Of a DNA stretch of 32,000 nt, positions 15,008-32,000 are shown one piece after another. The stretch lies in contig CP126532.1 of NCBI GenBank assembly GCA_030167145.1, positions 4,830,001-4,862,000 on the forward strand. The letters are read 5' to 3'. A program made the translations under genes and the position numbers. Within the stretch, counting starts at the first letter, position 1, and each line of letters begins with the position of its first letter. A model generated the notes under the pieces. The model worked only from the letters and a program-made list of their open reading frames with translations. It was not told where the DNA came from and did no database searches. The stretch comes from Ktedonobacterales bacterium. GTDB taxonomy: Bacteria > Chloroflexota > Ktedonobacteria > Ktedonobacterales > JADMIN01.

Positions 15008-15640
15008 ATGTGTGGCCGATATGAACTCATTGATGGACAACGAGTATTTCTGCGCTTCAACATCACCACCACGGCGCCACTGTTACGCGATGGTGTGCCG
15101 GATAATCTAGATGTGCGGCCAAGTCAACAAGTGGCCGCCGTGGTCGGCGATCAGGTGCTGCGGCTGATGCAGTGGGGGCTGGTGCCATTCTGGGCCAAGG
15201 ATGCGACGATTGGACACAAGCTCATTAACGCACGCGCGGAAGGCATCGCCGAGAAGCCATCATTCAAACGCCCGTTGCGGTCGCAGCGCTGCATCCTGCC
15301 AGCGTCGGCATTCTTCGAGTGGCGGGCGGCGCCAGGGGCAAAGACAAAGACCAAGTATCGCATTGGCCGCCGAGACGGAGAGTTGTTCGGGTTGGCGGGC
15401 CTCTATGACACCTGGACAAGCGCGAAGAACGGGGCGGATGCGGCTACCACGCTGACGACGTGTACGATCATCACCACAACGCCGAACGCGGTGGTAGCGC
15501 CGATCCATGACCGCATGCCAGTGATCCTGCGGCCAGAGGACGAGGCCGATTGGCTGAACCCTGACCTGAGCGAGCCAGAAGAGATTGTCACCTTTCTGCG
15601 CCCGTATCCTGAGGAATGGTTGGAAGCGCGGGTGGCCTGA
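15008..15640 (+). CDS. SOS-response-associated peptidase (SRAP/YedK family; abasic-site DNA-protein crosslinking)
   Basis: 210 aa. Begins MCGRY (catalytic Cys2). Contains WGLVPFWAKD and the INARAE...FEWR motifs. Confidence 0.9.
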   Translation: MCGRYELIDGQRVFLRFNITTTAPLLRDGVPDNLDVRPSQQVAAVVGDQVLRLMQWGLVPFWAKDATIGHKLINARAEGIAEKPSFKRPLRSQRCILPASAFFEWRAAPGAKTKTKYRIGRRDGELFGLAGLYDTWTSAKNGADAATTLTTCTIITTTPNAVVAPIHDRMPVILRPEDEADWLNPDLSEPEEIVTFLRPYPEEWLEARVA

Positions 15641-26746: not shown

Positions 26747-26910
26747 ATGGCACTCCTTTGGCGGTCGGCAATCAGCCCCTTCATGCCTATGATAGTCCCG
26801 CCACTTCACATAGGCGTCACGCGTGAGGCTGCACCATCACACGCATCTCTCAAGACGAGGTGCCTGACCAGGTATATGGCGCATTCGCAAAAGTGGTTCA
26901 AATGATGTGT

Positions 26911-26950
26911 TGTCAGGTATGGTCAGATGCCGTCAGATGGGGTCAGATAC
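26911..26950 (+). repeat. Four helically phased 10-bp direct repeats GTCAG(A/G)Tnnn
   Basis: gtcaggtatg / gtcagatgcc / gtcagatggg / gtcagatacg, starting at exactly 26911, 26921, 26931 and 26941. Confidence 0.9.
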
Positions 26951-27015
26951 GGCCAAGAGGCGCCATGGATCCGCGGGGATAGGGGTGAGGGTGCGGCCAG
27001 GACGTCGCTTCACTG

Positions 27016-27045
27016 TTGACAGGATGGTGTGCGCTTCTGCATAAC
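27016..27045 (+). promoter_or_regulatory. Putative promoter of the imuB-dnaE2 cassette
   Basis: TTGACA (27016-27021), 18-nt spacer, -10-like CATAAC (27040-27045). Confidence 0.5.
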
Positions 27046-27048
27046 GAT

Positions 27049-27062
27049 AGAACATGCGTTCT
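27049..27062. promoter_or_regulatory. LexA (SOS) box, GAAC-N4-GTTC type
   Basis: AGAAC ATGC GTTCT has perfect palindromic arms. It lies directly after the -10 and 27 nt before the imuB ATG. It is the only such site I found in the window. Confidence 0.75.
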
Positions 27063-27088
27063 TGTTTAGCGAAAGGGAGGCGGTCGGT

Positions 27089-28543
27089 ATGCGTGAGCTA
27101 CAGGCGGACGATGTGGTGTGCGCGGCGCTGCCGGAGGTGGGGGCAGCAGACGTGGTGGGGACGGCTGAGTATGTGGCGTGGGTGCAAATCCAAGATGTTC
27201 ACCGTGCGCTAGGTGCGGATACGGCGCAATGGGACCAGACATGGCAGCGGCTGTGCTGGCAGGTGACGGCACGGATGGAGATCGTGGAGGGTAGAGAGGA
27301 TGGGAAGGCGGAACTTAAGGGGAGCGATACGCATGGAGCGCATAGAGCGGGCGCACTGGCGGGCAGCCCTCTTCGGAACGACTCAGAGGGACTGCGCTTC
27401 ACTGGTGCGCTGCTGGCGCTGGGGTGGTGCGCGGCGACGGAGGCGGCGGGTGTGGCGCACGGGCTGGTGGGACGGCTGGCGGCGGCAGGCTACCGGGCGC
27501 GGATGGGCATCGGGCCAAATGCGACGCTGGCGCAATTGGCGCTCCAGTGCGGGAGAGCGGCGAGCAAGCTGAAGGGGCAAACGGTGGTGGTGGTGACGCC
27601 GGGGGAGGCGGTGGAGCGGTTGCTGGCGCGGACGCCGGTGGGGGCGCTGGCGGGGCTGCATCCGCGCGGGGTGGTGACGGCGGAGACGGTGGAACGATTG
27701 CGGCGGTATGGGCTGCGGACGTTGGGGCAGGTGGCGCGGCTGGTGGAACGCTCCGGGGAGGTGGCGCTGCGGCGGCAGTTTGGCCCAGTGGTGGGGGGCG
27801 CGCTGGTGGCGCTGGCACGGGGCGAGGAGCTACGTCCGTTGCAGCCGACGATGCAGCCGGAGACGTTGCGCTGTCGAGTGCGCTGGGTGATGGGTGGCTC
27901 GGCGACACAGGTGGGGGTAGGGCTGGGGAGGCTGGCAGAGCGAATCGCGGGGACGCTGGCGGAACGGGAGCAGGCGGCGGGACGGCTGCGGCTGCGGGTG
28001 GTATGGGCGCATGGTGGGGTGACGGAAGCGGAAACGCGGCTGCGCGAGCGCATCTCTGAGGCGCGACGGGTGGCGGAGGGTCTGCGGGCGCTGTGGGAGC
28101 AGTTCGTGGACCAGGACACCGACCACGGCGCAGAACATAGGGAAAATGGGCAAGGCAGGCAAGGCTGGGAGCGGCGCGCTGAGGTAGCAGACGTGGCAGT
28201 GGAGATAGAGGATTTGGTGGTGGTGCGACCAGCGCAGGGGGCCTTCTGGAAAGGGAGCGTGCAGCAGAATGCGACACTTTCGGTGCTCCGTGCGCGCGTG
28301 CGCGAGCGATTTGGTACGGGGTCGCAGGGGTTGGGACAGATCACATGTGTCGCGCCGGAGGCGGTGTTTGCGGAAGAGCGGTATGTGGTGGATGAGGGGA
28401 GCGATGAACAGATGGGCGGGCACCCGACACGGCCCACGCGGCTGGCAGGGGAGCGAGCGGCAGTGAGGACGGCAGACGGCAGCGCGGAGCGCGTCTGTGG
28501 CAATCCCTGGGCGGACGTGCCGCTGCGCTTGCATTGGTGGTGA
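27089..28543 (+). CDS. imuB: ImuB-like Y-family DNA polymerase homologue (probably catalytically inactive)
   Basis: The ATG at 27089 lies 8 nt after AAGGGAGG. MGIGPNATLAQLAL corresponds to the Y-family GIAPNKxLAK motif. An HhH/thumb region follows (LPVGALAGLHP...VERLRRYGLRTLGQVARL), then little-finger-like strands (RLRLRVVW...VAVEIEDLVVV), then QGAFW (28235-28249), a candidate beta-clamp motif. I could not recognise an N-terminal acidic catalytic triad. Confidence 0.8.
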   Translation: MRELQADDVVCAALPEVGAADVVGTAEYVAWVQIQDVHRALGADTAQWDQTWQRLCWQVTARMEIVEGREDGKAELKGSDTHGAHRAGALAGSPLRNDSEGLRFTGALLALGWCAATEAAGVAHGLVGRLAAAGYRARMGIGPNATLAQLALQCGRAASKLKGQTVVVVTPGEAVERLLARTPVGALAGLHPRGVVTAETVERLRRYGLRTLGQVARLVERSGEVALRRQFGPVVGGALVALARGEELRPLQPTMQPETLRCRVRWVMGGSATQVGVGLGRLAERIAGTLAEREQAAGRLRLRVVWAHGGVTEAETRLRERISEARRVAEGLRALWEQFVDQDTDHGAEHRENGQGRQGWERRAEVADVAVEIEDLVVVRPAQGAFWKGSVQQNATLSVLRARVRERFGTGSQGLGQITCVAPEAVFAEERYVVDEGSDEQMGGHPTRPTRLAGERAAVRTADGSAERVCGNPWADVPLRLHWW

Positions 28544-28550
28544 GCAAGCC

Positions 28551-28889
28551 ATGGGCCATGTGTATTCGCAGGTGATTGCGGTGATAACTGCTGCTGCGGG
28601 GGAACGACCGGAGCGGCTGGTATGGCGTGGGCGAGAGTATACGGTGGCGGAGGTGCTGAGCACGTGGCGGCTGCGGGATCGCTGGTGGGAGGAGCTGCCA
28701 CCACTTTCGGATGCACTCGAACCAGGAGAGCAACCACAACCTGGACAACCAGGGCACGGCCAGGGGCGACGGTTGGGAGGTGCGAGCGAGCGGACGTACT
28801 GGCGGGTGCGGTGCGTAGAGGGGATGATCTGCGACGTGTATGAAGATGCGGCGCGGGGGGTGTGGATGCTGGATAAGGTCTATGACTGA
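28551..28889 (+). CDS. Small W/R-rich protein (112 aa) wedged between imuB and dnaE2; possible detached ImuB C-terminal module
   Basis: The ATG at 28551 lies 7 nt after the imuB stop, with GGTGGTGAG as an SD-like element. NNG codon periodicity resumes exactly at this ATG. The stop overlaps the dnaE2 ATG by 8 nt. Sequence motifs: ...WRLRDRWWEE...YWRVRC...GVWMLDKVYD. Confidence 0.7.
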   Translation: MGHVYSQVIAVITAAAGERPERLVWRGREYTVAEVLSTWRLRDRWWEELPPLSDALEPGEQPQPGQPGHGQGRRLGGASERTYWRVRCVEGMICDVYEDAARGVWMLDKVYD

Positions 28890-31800
28890 GATGCTGACAG
28901 AGAGCGAGCGAGCAGCAGGCAAGGATACAGGCGGCGGTGGGAGAGCAGACGGCAGACGTTGGGAGACGCCACTCAACGGCGATGCGGGAACAGGTACAGG
29001 GCCTACAGAGTACGGGGACTACGTGGAGTTGCACTCCGCGAGCGCGTACAGTTTCCGGCGGGCGGGGAGTAGCGTGGAGGCGTTGGTGGCGCGGGCGGTG
29101 GCGCGGGCGGCGGCGCTGGGGACGGAGCGGGGCATACGGGCGCTGGCGCTGACGGACGAGATGACGCTGGCGGGGGTGGTGCGCTTCCAGGCGGCGTGCG
29201 CGGAACACGGGGTGAAGGGGATCGTGGGCTGCGCGCTGGCGGTGAGCGAGCCGCACTTTGGGACGGGGGCGGCGGGGCGACAACCGGCGGAAGTGGTGGC
29301 GCTGGCGGAGAATCAGACGGGGTATGCGCGGCTGTGTGCGTTGCTGACGGCGGCGAATCTGCGTGCGCCCGATGCGCCGGTGATTGCTTTCGCAGAACTG
29401 GCGGCGGAGCCAGAAGGGCTGATCTTGCTGACGGGTGGGCCAGAGGCGGGGACGCTGGCGCGGTTGGTGCGGGCGGGACGGCGGCAGGAGGCGGTGGCGG
29501 TGGCGCGGCGGTACCATGCGGTGTTTGGCGCAGAGCGAGTGTTCGTGGAGGTGCAGCAGCAGCGGTTGCCGGAGAGCGTGGGGCTGATGCAGGGGTTGGT
29601 GGAGGTGGCGGCAGAGGCGGGGCTGCGGGTGGTGGCGACCAATGGGGTGCGCTATGCGACACGGGCGGAGTACGCGGTGTATGACCTGCTGACCTGTGTG
29701 CGGCTGGGCATCTCGGTGGATGTGGCGCACCGGGAGCGGCCACGCAATGACGAGGCGTATCTGAAGTCGGATGCGGAGATGCGGGCGCTGTTCGCGGGGC
29801 TGCCGTGGGGGGAAGCGGCGCTGGCGGCGACGGGGGAGATTGCGGGGCGGTGCGCGGTGGCGCTGCTGCGGGGGACGTGTACGGCTCCGGCGGTGGCGCT
29901 GGCGGATGGGGAGACGCCGGACGAGCGGCTGGCGGCGCTGTGTGAGGAGGGGTTGTGGACGCGGTATGGAGCGCCTGTGGGACGGGATGCAGGCGACGGG
30001 CAAGGGCAGGTTGGGCAGGTTGGGCAGGTTGGGCAGGTTGGGCAGGTTGGGCAGGTTGGGCAGGTTGGGCAGGTTGGGCAGGTTGGGCAGGTTGGGTGGA
30101 CGAGAATACAGGCAGAGGGCGAGGCAGGCCTCGCCCCTACACCGTCCCCACCAGCAGCAGAGCAGTTGCCAGAAGAGGCGATGCCAGAAGCATTGCGGGC
30201 GGGGAGTGCGCCGCGGCGGCAACTGGCGCATGAGTTGGACGTGATTGGGCGGTTAGAGTTGGCGGAGTTTTTTTTGTGTGTGCGGGAGATGGTGAGCGCG
30301 GCGCGGGGGATGGGGGTGCGCATCAGCGGGCGGGGGTCAGCGGCGAACAGCCTGGTGGCGTATCTGCTGGGCATTACCGGGGTGGACCCCATCGCGCATG
30401 GGCTGCTGTTCGAGCGGTTCTTGAATCCAGAGCGGCGGGGGATGCCAGATATTGACCTGGATATTCAGAGCGACCGGCGGGAGGAGGTGATTCGCTGGGT
30501 GGAACGGCGGTACGGCCACGAACATGCGGCGATGGTGGCGAATGTGATGACGTATCGGGCGCGGCTGGCGCTGCGGGATGTGGCGAAGGCGCTGGGGTAT
30601 CCACTCGACGTGGTCAACCAGATGACCAAGGTGCTGCCGCACTACTGCGGGCGAGGGGAGATCGCGGGGTATGCGGAGGAGCTGGCGGGGGTGATTGCGC
30701 GAGCGGCGCAGGGACAGGGCGAGGTAGGCCTCGCCCCTACATCCACCAGACGAAGAGGGTGGACTACAGAGATAGGGCTGCGGCGGCTGCCGCTGGCGCT
30801 GGGGTTGGCGGCGCGGGTGTGTGGGTTGCCCCGGCACCTGAGCTTGCATAATGGGGGGATGGTGCTCTCGCGGGCGCGGCTGGCGGCGGTGTTGCCGGTG
30901 CGGGTCTCGGCGAATGGGGTGCGGGCGCTGGAGGTGGATAAAGACGATGTGGAGCGACTGGGACTGATCAAGTTCGACCTGTTGGGGTTGCGGACGCTGG
31001 GGGCGGTGGCGGAGGCGTTGACGTTGATCGAGGAGACGACGGGGACACGGCCGGATGTGGACCAGTTGCCGACCGAGCCGCCGGATGAACAGACGATGCG
31101 CCTGATCCGGGCGGGGCAGACGCTGGCGGTGTTTCAGATTGAGTCGCCGGGGCAGTGGCATTTGCTGGCGCAGACGCAGCCGGAGACGTTCAATGATCTG
31201 ATCGTACAGACGGCGTTGTTTCGTCCGGGGCCGATTCAGGGCGGGTTTGTGCGGCCGTATGTGGAGCAGCGCAGGGAAAAGCATGGGCAATGGCAGTGGG
31301 AGAGTCTCCAACGGGAGCAACAACAGGCAGAGCAACAACAGGCAGAGCAGCAATGGGCAGAGCAGCGGGATGCGGTGCAGACGCCGTGGCAGAGCGGTCA
31401 GGCGGATACCTTCTGGACGGGGCATGCGGTGCTGGGGCCGATCCTGCGGGAGAGCGAGGGGATTCTACTGTTTCAGGAGCAGATTCTGGAGATTGCGCAT
31501 CAGTTCGCGGGGCTGAGCTATGCCGAGGCGGATGGGTTCCGGCGGGCGATGTCGCATCAACGGGAGCCGGAGCAGATGGCGGCGATGCGGGAGCGGTTCG
31601 TGGCGGGGGCCATCGAGCGGGGGGAGACGGCGGCGGATGCGGAGCGGGTGTTCGGCGCGGTGTCGGCGTTTGTGGGGTATGGGTTCTGCAAGAGCCATGC
31701 GGCGGAGTTCGCGCGGACGATCTATCAGACGGCGTGGCTGAAGGCGCACTATCCGGCGCACTATCTGGCGGCGTTCCTCTCGGCGCAACCTGCGGGGTTC

Positions 31801-32000
31801 TTTCCGCCGCATGTGGTGCTGGAGGAGGCGAAGCTGCTGGGGGTGCCGGTGCTGCCGCCGGAGGTGAACCGGAGCGAGGGGCGGTTCACGGTGGAGTGGG
31901 TGGGGCAGCATGGTACAGCGGGGAGCCGGTATGCGCGGTGGGGGATCCGGATTGGGTTGGCGCAGGTGCGAGGGGTGGGGGAGGAGTTGGCGCGGGCGAT
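28882..32000 (+). CDS. dnaE2: Error-prone DNA polymerase III alpha-subunit paralogue DnaE2 (ImuC); 3' end outside window
   Basis: Own translation of frame 1; the frame is open to the window edge, so it is absent from the ORF track. YVELHSASAYSF (PHP), GRGSAANSLVAYLLGITGVDPI, FERFLNPERRGMPDIDLDI, LPRHLSLHNGGMVLS, GLIKFDLLGLRTLG, VFQIESPGQ, ALFRPGPIQGG, LLFQEQILE, GYGFCKSHAAEFA. An ATG at 28891 is an alternative start. Confidence 0.9.
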   Translation, partial: MTEMLTESERAAGKDTGGGGRADGRRWETPLNGDAGTGTGPTEYGDYVELHSASAYSFRRAGSSVEALVARAVARAAALGTERGIRALALTDEMTLAGVVRFQAACAEHGVKGIVGCALAVSEPHFGTGAAGRQPAEVVALAENQTGYARLCALLTAANLRAPDAPVIAFAELAAEPEGLILLTGGPEAGTLARLVRAGRRQEAVAVARRYHAVFGAERVFVEVQQQRLPESVGLMQGLVEVAAEAGLRVVATNGVRYATRAEYAVYDLLTCVRLGISVDVAHRERPRNDEAYLKSDAEMRALFAGLPWGEAALAATGEIAGRCAVALLRGTCTAPAVALADGETPDERLAALCEEGLWTRYGAPVGRDAGDGQGQVGQVGQVGQVGQVGQVGQVGQVGQVGQVGWTRIQAEGEAGLAPTPSPPAAEQLPEEAMPEALRAGSAPRRQLAHELDVIGRLELAEFFLCVREMVSAARGMGVRISGRGSAANSLVAYLLGITGVDPIAHGLLFERFLNPERRGMPDIDLDIQSDRREEVIRWVERRYGHEHAAMVANVMTYRARLALRDVAKALGYPLDVVNQMTKVLPHYCGRGEIAGYAEELAGVIARAAQGQGEVGLAPTSTRRRGWTTEIGLRRLPLALGLAARVCGLPRHLSLHNGGMVLSRARLAAVLPVRVSANGVRALEVDKDDVERLGLIKFDLLGLRTLGAVAEALTLIEETTGTRPDVDQLPTEPPDEQTMRLIRAGQTLAVFQIESPGQWHLLAQTQPETFNDLIVQTALFRPGPIQGGFVRPYVEQRREKHGQWQWESLQREQQQAEQQQAEQQWAEQRDAVQTPWQSGQADTFWTGHAVLGPILRESEGILLFQEQILEIAHQFAGLSYAEADGFRRAMSHQREPEQMAAMRERFVAGAIERGETAADAERVFGAVSAFVGYGFCKSHAAEFARTIYQTAWLKAHYPAHYLAAFLSAQPAGFFPPHVVLEEAKLLGVPVLPPEVNRSEGRFTVEWVGQHGTAGSRYARWGIRIGLAQVRGVGEELARA
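30004..30096 (+). repeat. Perfect 9-bp tandem repeat (CAGGTTGGG x10) inside dnaE2, encoding (GQV)10
   Basis: Ten identical units span 30007-30096, preceded by ggg. The array is codon-aligned with the dnaE2 frame. Confidence 0.98.
30116..30141 (+). repeat. 26-nt GC-rich palindromic element, copy 1 (in dnaE2 frame)
   Basis: aGGGCGAGGcaggCCTCGCCCctaca: an 8-bp stem GGGCGAGG/CCTCGCCC with a 4-nt loop. 25/26 identical to copy 2. Confidence 0.9.
30716..30741 (+). repeat. 26-nt GC-rich palindromic element, copy 2 (in dnaE2 frame)
   Basis: aGGGCGAGGtaggCCTCGCCCctaca, exactly 600 bp after copy 1 and therefore in the same codon phase. Confidence 0.9.
31315..31374 (+). repeat. Decaying 15-bp tandem repeat inside dnaE2 (EQQQA EQQQA EQQWA EQRDA)
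   Basis: gagcaacaacaggca x2 (perfect), then gagcagcaatgggca, then gagcagcgggatgcg. The array is codon-aligned. Confidence 0.85.

Follow-up and report, generated by a model that had tools for sequence, protein, structure and literature searches.

How a protein that resembles only the C-terminus of ImuB came to be encoded by a gene of its own is the question raised by one end of a 32 000 bp stretch of DNA (here called the window; positions 4,830,001 to 4,862,000 of CP126532.1), part of a 5.07-Mb contig from a metagenome-assembled genome (MAG) of a Ktedonobacterales bacterium. There, a 112 amino acid open reading frame (ORF) lies between a longer, imuB-like gene and dnaE2, which encodes an error-prone DNA polymerase. 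An earlier note on this DNA had taken the small ORF for a detached ImuB C-terminal module, and had explained it by a local duplication within an ancestral imuB followed by a frame break. The first part of that proposal held up, and the second did not. We consider it probable (approximately 0.8) that this end of the window is an SOS-regulated three-gene 'split-ImuB' mutasome operon, in which an inactive Y-family polymerase (iPolY), a stand-alone ImuB C-terminal domain (ImuB-C) and DnaE2 are produced as separate proteins.

The small gene (28551..28889, + strand) is locus tag OJF49_004669, annotated as 'hypothetical' and assigned by identity to P0001. Its sequence was exactly as the earlier note had quoted it, with residues 17-46 encoded at 28599-28688, and the translation is MGHVYSQVIAVITAAAGERPERLVWRGREYTVAEVLSTWRLRDRWWEE / LPPLSDALEPGEQPQPGQPGHGQGRRLGGA / SERTYWRVRCVEGMICDVYEDAARGVWMLDKVYD. 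An N-terminal half (28551-28694) and a C-terminal half (28785-28886) flank a disordered linker rich in G, Q and P (28695-28784). When the protein was compared with Pfam, family DUF6504 (PF20114, gathering score 24.2 bits) matched with a score of 55.2 bits (E = 9.5e-15) across profile positions 12-100 of 103. When 1.84 billion representative proteins were searched with a profile, 83 relatives emerged, nearly all of them stand-alone and 54-164 amino acids long. All of the relatives recovered carry PF20114, and it was the sole domain in 91 of the 92 proteins from a second search. The family consists of two conserved halves separated by a linker that is very variable in length. The first half includes the motif ..F.WRG..Y.V..WrLRDRWW and the second ..R.YwRV.C...iCDVY.DA...WvLD.V.D, and an alignment of 46 sequences revealed that R81, R85 and W105 are invariant. 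The N-terminal M.H.Y is also conserved in the family, which establishes the ATG at 28551 as the start.

AlphaFold2 modelled the 112 amino acid protein as six beta strands without a long helix, at a predicted local distance difference test score (pLDDT) of 79, with residues 48-78 forming the disordered linker. No solved structure with a similar fold was found when the model was compared with the PDB. An all-beta model with no PDB match agrees with the published description of ImuB-C as a beta-barrel whose fold is novel (Timinskas & Venclovas 2026, PMC12926913). The protein also has the traits listed for ImuB-C by Aravind, Anand & Iyer (2013, PMC3765255), namely a C-terminal tryptophan (W105), basic residues (R81 and R85) and a predicted structure that is mainly beta.

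A literature search for 'DUF6504' returned no match, and the connection to ImuB-C was therefore made by sequence. Seven canonical ImuB proteins were taken from plasmid cassettes in which each imuB adjoins imuA and/or dnaE2. PF20114 matched five of the seven, colinearly and within the last ~75 residues; the best E value was 9.5e-6, for a match above the gathering score, and the weakest was 0.056. The motifs F.WRG..H.V, PERI.GEWW, RDYY.VED and W(F/Y)LHG are common to the canonical ImuB C-termini and the stand-alone family, and the profiles of the two groups aligned in hhalign with 91% probability (E = 1e-6). In addition, BLASTP matched the 112 amino acid protein to the published stand-alone ImuB-C of Sphaerobacter (ACZ39476; E = 4e-5). 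On the basis of these matches, shared motifs and alignments, we identify DUF6504 as the ImuB-C domain that Aravind et al. defined in 2013, and the 112 amino acid ORF as a genuine gene encoding a stand-alone copy of that domain. The resemblance to an ImuB C-terminal module seen in the earlier note is thus borne out, as is its view that the module is encoded as its own polypeptide within an imuB-like/dnaE2 operon. The RWW motif that it had ascribed to actinobacterial ImuB proteins is present in the tail of an actinobacterial ImuB2 in a published table.

The gene immediately upstream (27089..28543, + strand; locus tag OJF49_004668, annotated as 'hypothetical' and assigned by identity to P0004) encodes a 484 amino acid protein that can be described as ImuB without ImuB-C. 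A profile was built from 16 proteins, comprising this one and 15 orthologues that are 28-37% identical to it. With hhalign, the profile matched the Sphaerobacter iPolY ACZ39475 (99.2%, E = 2.6e-19) and canonical ImuB (98.6%, E = 7.7e-16), and it also matched the solved structures of REV1, Pol eta and Pol IV, with E values from 2.4e-15 to 1e-13. Where REV1 has S-C-D-E, the aligned residues in iPolY are non-acidic, and the window protein reads FTGALLAL. The stretch equivalent to the SIDE motif is FTGALLALGWCA (27398-27433, + strand). In both a Pfam scan and the orthologue alignment, the N-terminal DxD region of iPolY was unrecognisable. Because the catalytic Asp-Glu of the SxDE motif has been replaced, we take the protein to be an inactive Y-family polymerase. 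Directly before the degenerate SIDE motif, the window iPolY contains an insertion of ~37 amino acids, REDGKAELKGSDTHGAHRAGALAGSPLRNDSEGLRF (residues ~67-103). At this site only one of the 15 aligned orthologues, that of L027, has an insert, which is shorter and dissimilar.

Two candidate interaction motifs were found after the little-finger domain of iPolY. Directly following the domain is QGAFW (28235..28249, + strand), a candidate beta-clamp-binding motif whose aligned counterparts are Q..(F/L)W or Q..LF among the orthologues and HQETLFG in the Sphaerobacter iPolY, and which occupies the position of the clamp motif reported for ImuB. It is followed by a RecA-NT-like motif, VQQNATLSVLRARVRERFGTGSQGLGQIT (28259..28345, + strand; residues 391-419), which aligns with the published RecA-NT segments of the Sphaerobacter iPolY and canonical ImuB; RecA N-termini for comparison (...QIEKQFGKGSIMRL) are given in the supplement to Timinskas & Venclovas 2019 (PMC6511836). 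A DUF6504 signal was absent from the 484 amino acid protein and its stop codon is conserved in orthologues, so ImuB-C is not covalently attached to the polymerase here as it is in canonical ImuB.

The third gene, dnaE2, begins at 28891 and continues past the end of the window (28891..32000, + strand). Its product was recognised by the Pfam families PHP, DNA_pol3_alpha, finger and HHH_6; tblastn matched the gene to plasmid genes annotated as 'error-prone DNA polymerase', and it is 55-72% identical to the dnaE2 of orthologous cassettes. The gene order on this one strand is therefore iPolY, stand-alone ImuB-C, dnaE2, with 7 nt between iPolY and the small gene and 1 nt between the stop codon of the small gene and the ATG of dnaE2. 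When GTDB genomes were scanned for related loci, 19 were found in Ktedonobacterales and Chloroflexia MAGs, and in 13 of them the same three genes follow one another in the same order and orientation. In L022 and the metagenome contig L006, iPolY is followed by ImuB-C without dnaE2, and four related loci contain the small gene alone. The full triad is also present on the metagenome contigs L007-L009, and an Abditibacteriota plasmid (AP024153) carries lexA, a gene for a 417 amino acid PolY, a 111 amino acid DUF6504 gene and dnaE2. No RecA- or ImuA-like gene was found among the scanned ORFs of the 32-kb window, or directly upstream of iPolY. The window dnaE2 contains two in-frame repeats. One is a perfect 9-nt tandem repeat, GGGCAGGTT, present in 10.3 copies with 100% matches (30004-30096) and encoding (GQV)n, which belongs to a stretch of ~70 amino acids inserted between the PHP and palm domains and found in none of the orthologues. 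The other is a 15-nt repeat of 3.3 copies (31315-31364) that encodes QQQAE.

The three genes appear to be under common control. The 14-bp sequence AGAACATGCGTTCT (27049..27062, + strand), which forms a perfect GAAC-N4-GTTC palindrome, lies 27-40 nt upstream of the iPolY start. This putative LexA (SOS) box is the sole perfect GAACN4GTTC in the 32 kb, and a box of the LexA type with 0-1 mismatch precedes all of the 17 iPolY genes that were examined. Between iPolY and the small gene at related loci, no such box was found except at the locus where the two are separated by 429 nt, and a scan of the operon found neither an internal promoter nor a terminator on the + strand. Together, these features argue for a single SOS-controlled operon. 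A hexamer resembling a -35 element, TTGACA (27016..27021, + strand), may belong to the operon promoter, and is part of a conserved ~90-bp block that also precedes two paralogues of the small gene (see below); as a strict sigma-70 scan of 26800-29100 called no promoter, this assignment is provisional. An SOS response associated peptidase (SRAP) gene (PF02586, E = 1.7e-59) is located at 15008-15640 (+ strand), 12 kb upstream of the cassette. SRAP is the other SOS-linked family defined in the 2013 paper that defined ImuB-C, and no GAAC-N4-GTTC box was found upstream of this SRAP gene.

The small gene is present in the same genome in two further full-length copies (L001 10001-10378 and L002 10001-10393), which are 80% and 75% identical to the window copy and are each found among unrelated genes. 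DNA homology between these solo copies and the window copy is confined to the segment from ATG to TGA. The ~90-bp block upstream of both solo genes is the one that precedes iPolY in the window (26990-27075), GCGGCCAGGAC...TTGACAGG...TAGAACA...GTTCTTG, and it places a LexA box at 9887-9900 in L001 and at 9877-9890 in L002. It looks as if the promoter and the small gene have been joined with iPolY left out. Ratios of nonsynonymous to synonymous substitution among the three copies are 0.13-0.16, and all indels are in frame. The small gene is thus under purifying selection, with all three copies maintained as proteins. A truncated fourth copy (L001 11602-11733), 1.2 kb downstream of the L001 solo gene, retains only the C-terminal half (~residues 78-112, 72% identity) and ends at the same TGA. 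Solo genes were also found elsewhere: one Chloroflexia MAG (MFD02579.bin.2.68) has three on three contigs (L013, L015 and L016), all of them preceded by a perfect GAAC-N4-GTTC box at a distance of 154-203 nt and lacking a polymerase gene nearby. A perfect box of the LexA type precedes five of the six solo ImuB-C genes that could be assessed, and multiple copies of solo ImuB-C genes with SOS boxes seem to be recurrent in the lineage. No conserved neighbours of the solo genes were obvious.

Base composition sets the cassette and the solo copies apart. In the cassette (27001-32000), GC content is 65-72% and GC skew is +0.32 to +0.37, compared with a GC content of 56-63% and a skew close to 0 (magnitude of 0.14 or less) in the rest of the window. 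Third codon positions in the cassette are 54-67% G and 12-14% C, compared with 27-49% G and 24-37% C in neighbouring genes. The L001 and L002 solo copies are also G-skewed (+0.39 and +0.42, respectively), whereas 15 orthologous cassettes in other genomes have skews of -0.20 to +0.06 and no such bias. Foreign origin and a locus-specific mutation or selection bias are both possible sources of the preference for codons ending in G. As the coding strand is rich in G, long spurious ORFs cover the cassette on the opposite strand, among them one of 913 amino acids at 27490-30231 (-), and these could lead gene callers to misannotate the region.

The origin proposed in the earlier note, namely duplication of the first half of the C-terminal module within a single ancestral imuB and then a frame break that left the remainder to be translated separately, depends on the tail of iPolY. 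The last 31 codons (28448-28540, with the stop codon TGA at 28541-28543) encode GERAAVRTADGSAERVCGNPWADVPLRLHWW, as the note had read them, and the literal landmarks GER, G, V and LR..WW are indeed common to this tail and to residues 17-46 of the small ORF. The small ORF is also in the +1 frame relative to iPolY, in a frame that is open from 28497, and genuine fissions of ImuB are known elsewhere, for example in Corynebacterium epidermidicanis (2019 supplement, PMC6511836). The similarity itself, however, is at the level expected by chance. A local BLOSUM62 alignment of the tail with the small ORF scored 27, compared with 24.6 +/- 4.6 for shuffled sequences (p = 0.30); semi-global alignment with residues 17-46 gave p = 0.13, and codon shuffles at the DNA level gave p = 0.71. 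Among other 31 amino acid windows in iPolY and DnaE2, 2.8% score at least as well as the tail against the small ORF. A Pfam scan of the tail found no match, and a custom DUF6504 hidden Markov model, run with --max (filters off), found nothing in 19 orthologue tails. On these results the tail cannot be recognised as a shortened duplicate of the small ORF's first half, and we reject that reading.

The orthologue alignment also separates the tail into two parts. The landmarks GER...G...V fall in a linker, GERAAVRTADGSAERVCGN (28448..28504, + strand), made up of gap-rich, unconserved columns (AlphaFold2 pLDDT ~30), which is the part that had been aligned with the small ORF. It is followed by a conserved C-terminal motif, PWADVPLRLHWW, and the TGA stop (28505..28543, + strand), and only PW..VP.RLHWW is conserved in the tail. 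Residues H482, W483 and W484 are invariant, as all 16 aligned proteins end in HWW-COOH, in one of the two flavours PW..VP.RLHWW and (A/P)PQPHWW, each followed directly by the stop. Thus, the stop after WW, which had appeared abrupt, marks where the protein naturally ends. Residue 438 of the window protein is equivalent to the last residue of the published Sphaerobacter iPolY, and the ~46 residues beyond it, which are disordered in the AlphaFold2 monomer model, are therefore a lineage-specific extension. Two resemblances of this terminus are leads only: PW..VP.RLHWW resembles EPWSRIPER, a motif that follows RecA-NT in the Sphaerobacter and Dehalogenimonas iPolY proteins, and Q(P/RL)HWW resembles C-terminal clamp-binding peptides. 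With the tail not a copy, HWW-stop invariant and separate genes with varied spacers and frames at every related locus, the model of duplication and frame break is largely refuted and we regard it as very improbable, the more so as published work regards the split form as a possible ancestor of the fused ImuB.

The spacers and frames bear equally on two other ways in which a single ImuB might be hidden here. Across the related loci, the distance between iPolY and the small gene varies from -4 to 429 nt, relative frames of 0, +1 and +2 were all seen, and a GGAGG ribosome-binding site serves most of the small genes individually. Together, these observations exclude an assembly error, a frame break of recent date and a programmed frameshift conserved among the loci. 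Apart from the close spacing of 7 nt, nothing would lead one to suspect a sequencing or assembly error, such as a false TGA or an indel near 28541, that splits one real imuB. Comparison with related loci, a check that the earlier note had itself proposed, found no uninterrupted imuB; in assemblies produced independently by different projects, the stop always comes right after HWW and is followed by a separate small gene with the conserved N-terminus M.H.Y, and the two full-length solo copies in the same genome begin their DNA homology at the ATG. An error or frame break is thus ruled out by 16 orthologous loci, and we give it practically no weight. A programmed +1 ribosomal frameshift near the end of iPolY, yielding an ImuB-like fusion alongside the two individual proteins, could make use of the 54 nt upstream of the small-gene ATG that are open in its frame and overlap the end of iPolY. 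The shift would, however, remove the invariant HWW end, conservation of a slippery site was not seen, and frames and spacers that are not conserved leave no common geometry. This candidate too is ruled out, and is extremely unlikely. Spacing of 6-7 nt is found only in the window and L011, where the HWW codons and the stop form GGTGGTGA, and translational coupling of the small gene to iPolY is plausible there.

The solo genes suggest a different possibility, that the small protein acts chiefly as an SOS effector in its own right, for which the dnaE2 operon is one context among several. Aravind et al. (2013) proposed that ImuB-C is a sensor of DNA damage or DNA structure, or a general adaptor, and the many stand-alone ImuB-C contexts in that paper are in keeping with such a role, as are the solo genes here and in other MAGs, which have their own perfect LexA box and no polymerase neighbour, and the purifying selection on all copies. 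Set against this, the prevailing context in the lineage is between iPolY and dnaE2, and published AlphaFold models put ImuB-C on the PHP domain of DnaE2, which they identify as its main interface (PMC12926913). We consider an independent effector unlikely as the main role, though it is compatible with the split mutasome and the two are not exclusive.

The arrangement in the window has published counterparts. ImuB-C was reported in 2013 to occur stand-alone with DnaE2 and an inactive DinB (PMC3765255). An operon of iPolY, ImuB-C and DnaE2 was subsequently described in Kyrpidia tusciae (ADG05750/49/48), and the supplement to that study lists the operon in Chloroflexi (Dehalogenimonas, with LexA) and in Deinococcus (PMC6511836). 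In a 2026 survey, DnaE2X-iPolY-ImuBC-RecA was termed 'a split ImuB' and considered a possible ancestor of ImuA-ImuB-DnaE2 (PMC12926913). The window cassette shares with the exemplars of this system (Kyrpidia tusciae; Sphaerobacter thermophilus, ACZ39475/ACZ39476/ACZ37666; Dehalogenimonas lykanthroporepellens) the same three genes in the same order, a stand-alone ImuB-C, an inactive Y-family polymerase with RecA-NT-like and clamp-type motifs, and a link to LexA, either as a lexA gene or as a box; imuA is absent from their operons and was not found in the window. It differs from them in that the Ktedonobacterales iPolY has ~46 extra residues ending in the invariant HWW-COOH, the window ImuB-C has a long disordered linker, and the genome contains additional solo paralogues with LexA boxes. 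According to the 2019 supplement, ImuB-C may be the binding partner of a conserved tail at the C-terminus of the PolY encoded with it, and the PolY groups associated with ImuB-C, other than the GeoPolY-like group, have different or unconserved tails. The window DnaE2 is 43% identical to the DnaE2 of the Abditibacteriota split system and 35-39% identical to the DnaE2 of ImuA-ImuB cassettes, which is only suggestive of membership in the DnaE2X clade.

Other systems share some of these features. The canonical ImuA(ImuA')-ImuB-DnaE2 mutasome, as found in Mycobacterium tuberculosis, Pseudomonas, Caulobacter and the plasmid cassettes L004 and L029-L034, likewise combines a dead Y-family scaffold, ImuB-C and DnaE2 and is damage-inducible, and its ImuB-C motifs F.WRG, (E/R)WW, RDYY/R.YY and the C-terminal W align with those in the window. 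There, however, ImuB-C forms part of ImuB itself and imuB is preceded by a gene for the RecA-like ImuA, while in the window ImuB-C has a separate gene and imuA was not found. The operon lexA-imuB-C-polY of Geobacter sulfurreducens (PMC3765255) is also SOS-controlled and includes a stand-alone ImuB-C with a Y-family polymerase, but the polymerase is apparently active and dnaE2 is absent. In the split ImuB of Corynebacterium epidermidicanis, ImuB function is also spread over two polypeptides. There, a canonical ImuA-ImuB-DnaE2 system has undergone true fission, in which three genes intervene and the RecA-NT motif has gone with the ImuB-C part, whereas the RecA-NT-like motif in the window stays on iPolY. 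We conclude that the window is a further, Ktedonobacterales example of the published split-ImuB layout, and that the core observation was already known. PMC3765255, PMC6511836 and PMC12926913 do not describe the HWW-COOH extension, the solo paralogues with LexA boxes or the anomalous base composition.

Several points weigh against the split-mutasome interpretation. The Pfam DUF6504 model recognises only one of three published ImuB-C exemplars, and most of its matches in canonical ImuB are under the gathering score. The AlphaFold2 model of iPolY is poor (pLDDT 50.5, with residues 1-175 the worst); built from a 6-sequence alignment, it is informative only for the folding of the thumb and little finger and for the disordered tail. 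Two solo paralogues have no polymerase neighbours, and the protein need not act only with the cassette. The absence of imuA holds for the 32-kb window only, and recA and lexA are not in the window. The contacts between partners are transferred from AlphaFold models of other species.

Homology and the published models nevertheless allow a sequence of events to be proposed. On DNA damage, LexA would be cleaved and the three proteins made. The dead iPolY would serve as a scaffold, binding the beta clamp through QGAFW and RecA through the RecA-NT-like motif, and the free ImuB-C, by homology with canonical ImuB-C, would act as an adaptor and hold DnaE2 by its PHP domain. DnaE2 would then carry out mutagenic lesion bypass. 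More speculatively, HWW-COOH on its disordered tail might be a docking peptide that substitutes for the covalent link in the fused ImuB. Its partner could be free ImuB-C, DnaE2, RecA or the clamp, or it could instead be a second clamp motif, and the solo paralogues might modulate the system. That Ktedonobacterales have a split mutasome with an assembly and control logic of its own, with HWW docking, tuning by solo paralogues and a G bias that marks one module, is a tentative proposal that we consider rather doubtful as a whole.

If it were true, the solo ImuB-C paralogues, two and a truncated remnant in this genome and three in another MAG, would tune or compete for HWW docking and so set the level of SOS mutagenesis, and the preference for codons ending in G, common only to the cassette and the solo copies, would mark a single co-evolving or co-acquired module. 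In M. tuberculosis and other pathogens, drug resistance and the mutagenesis that follows DNA damage are driven by the ImuA-ImuB-DnaE2 mutasome, of which ImuB-C is the least understood module. A natural ImuB-C that is free, small and soluble would be a convenient handle for biochemical and structural work, and split systems may inform whether the fused ImuB arose from them. To these systems, the locus described here adds an example from the Ktedonobacterales, with an invariant HWW peptide on the dead polymerase and multiple solo ImuB-C genes with putative SOS boxes.

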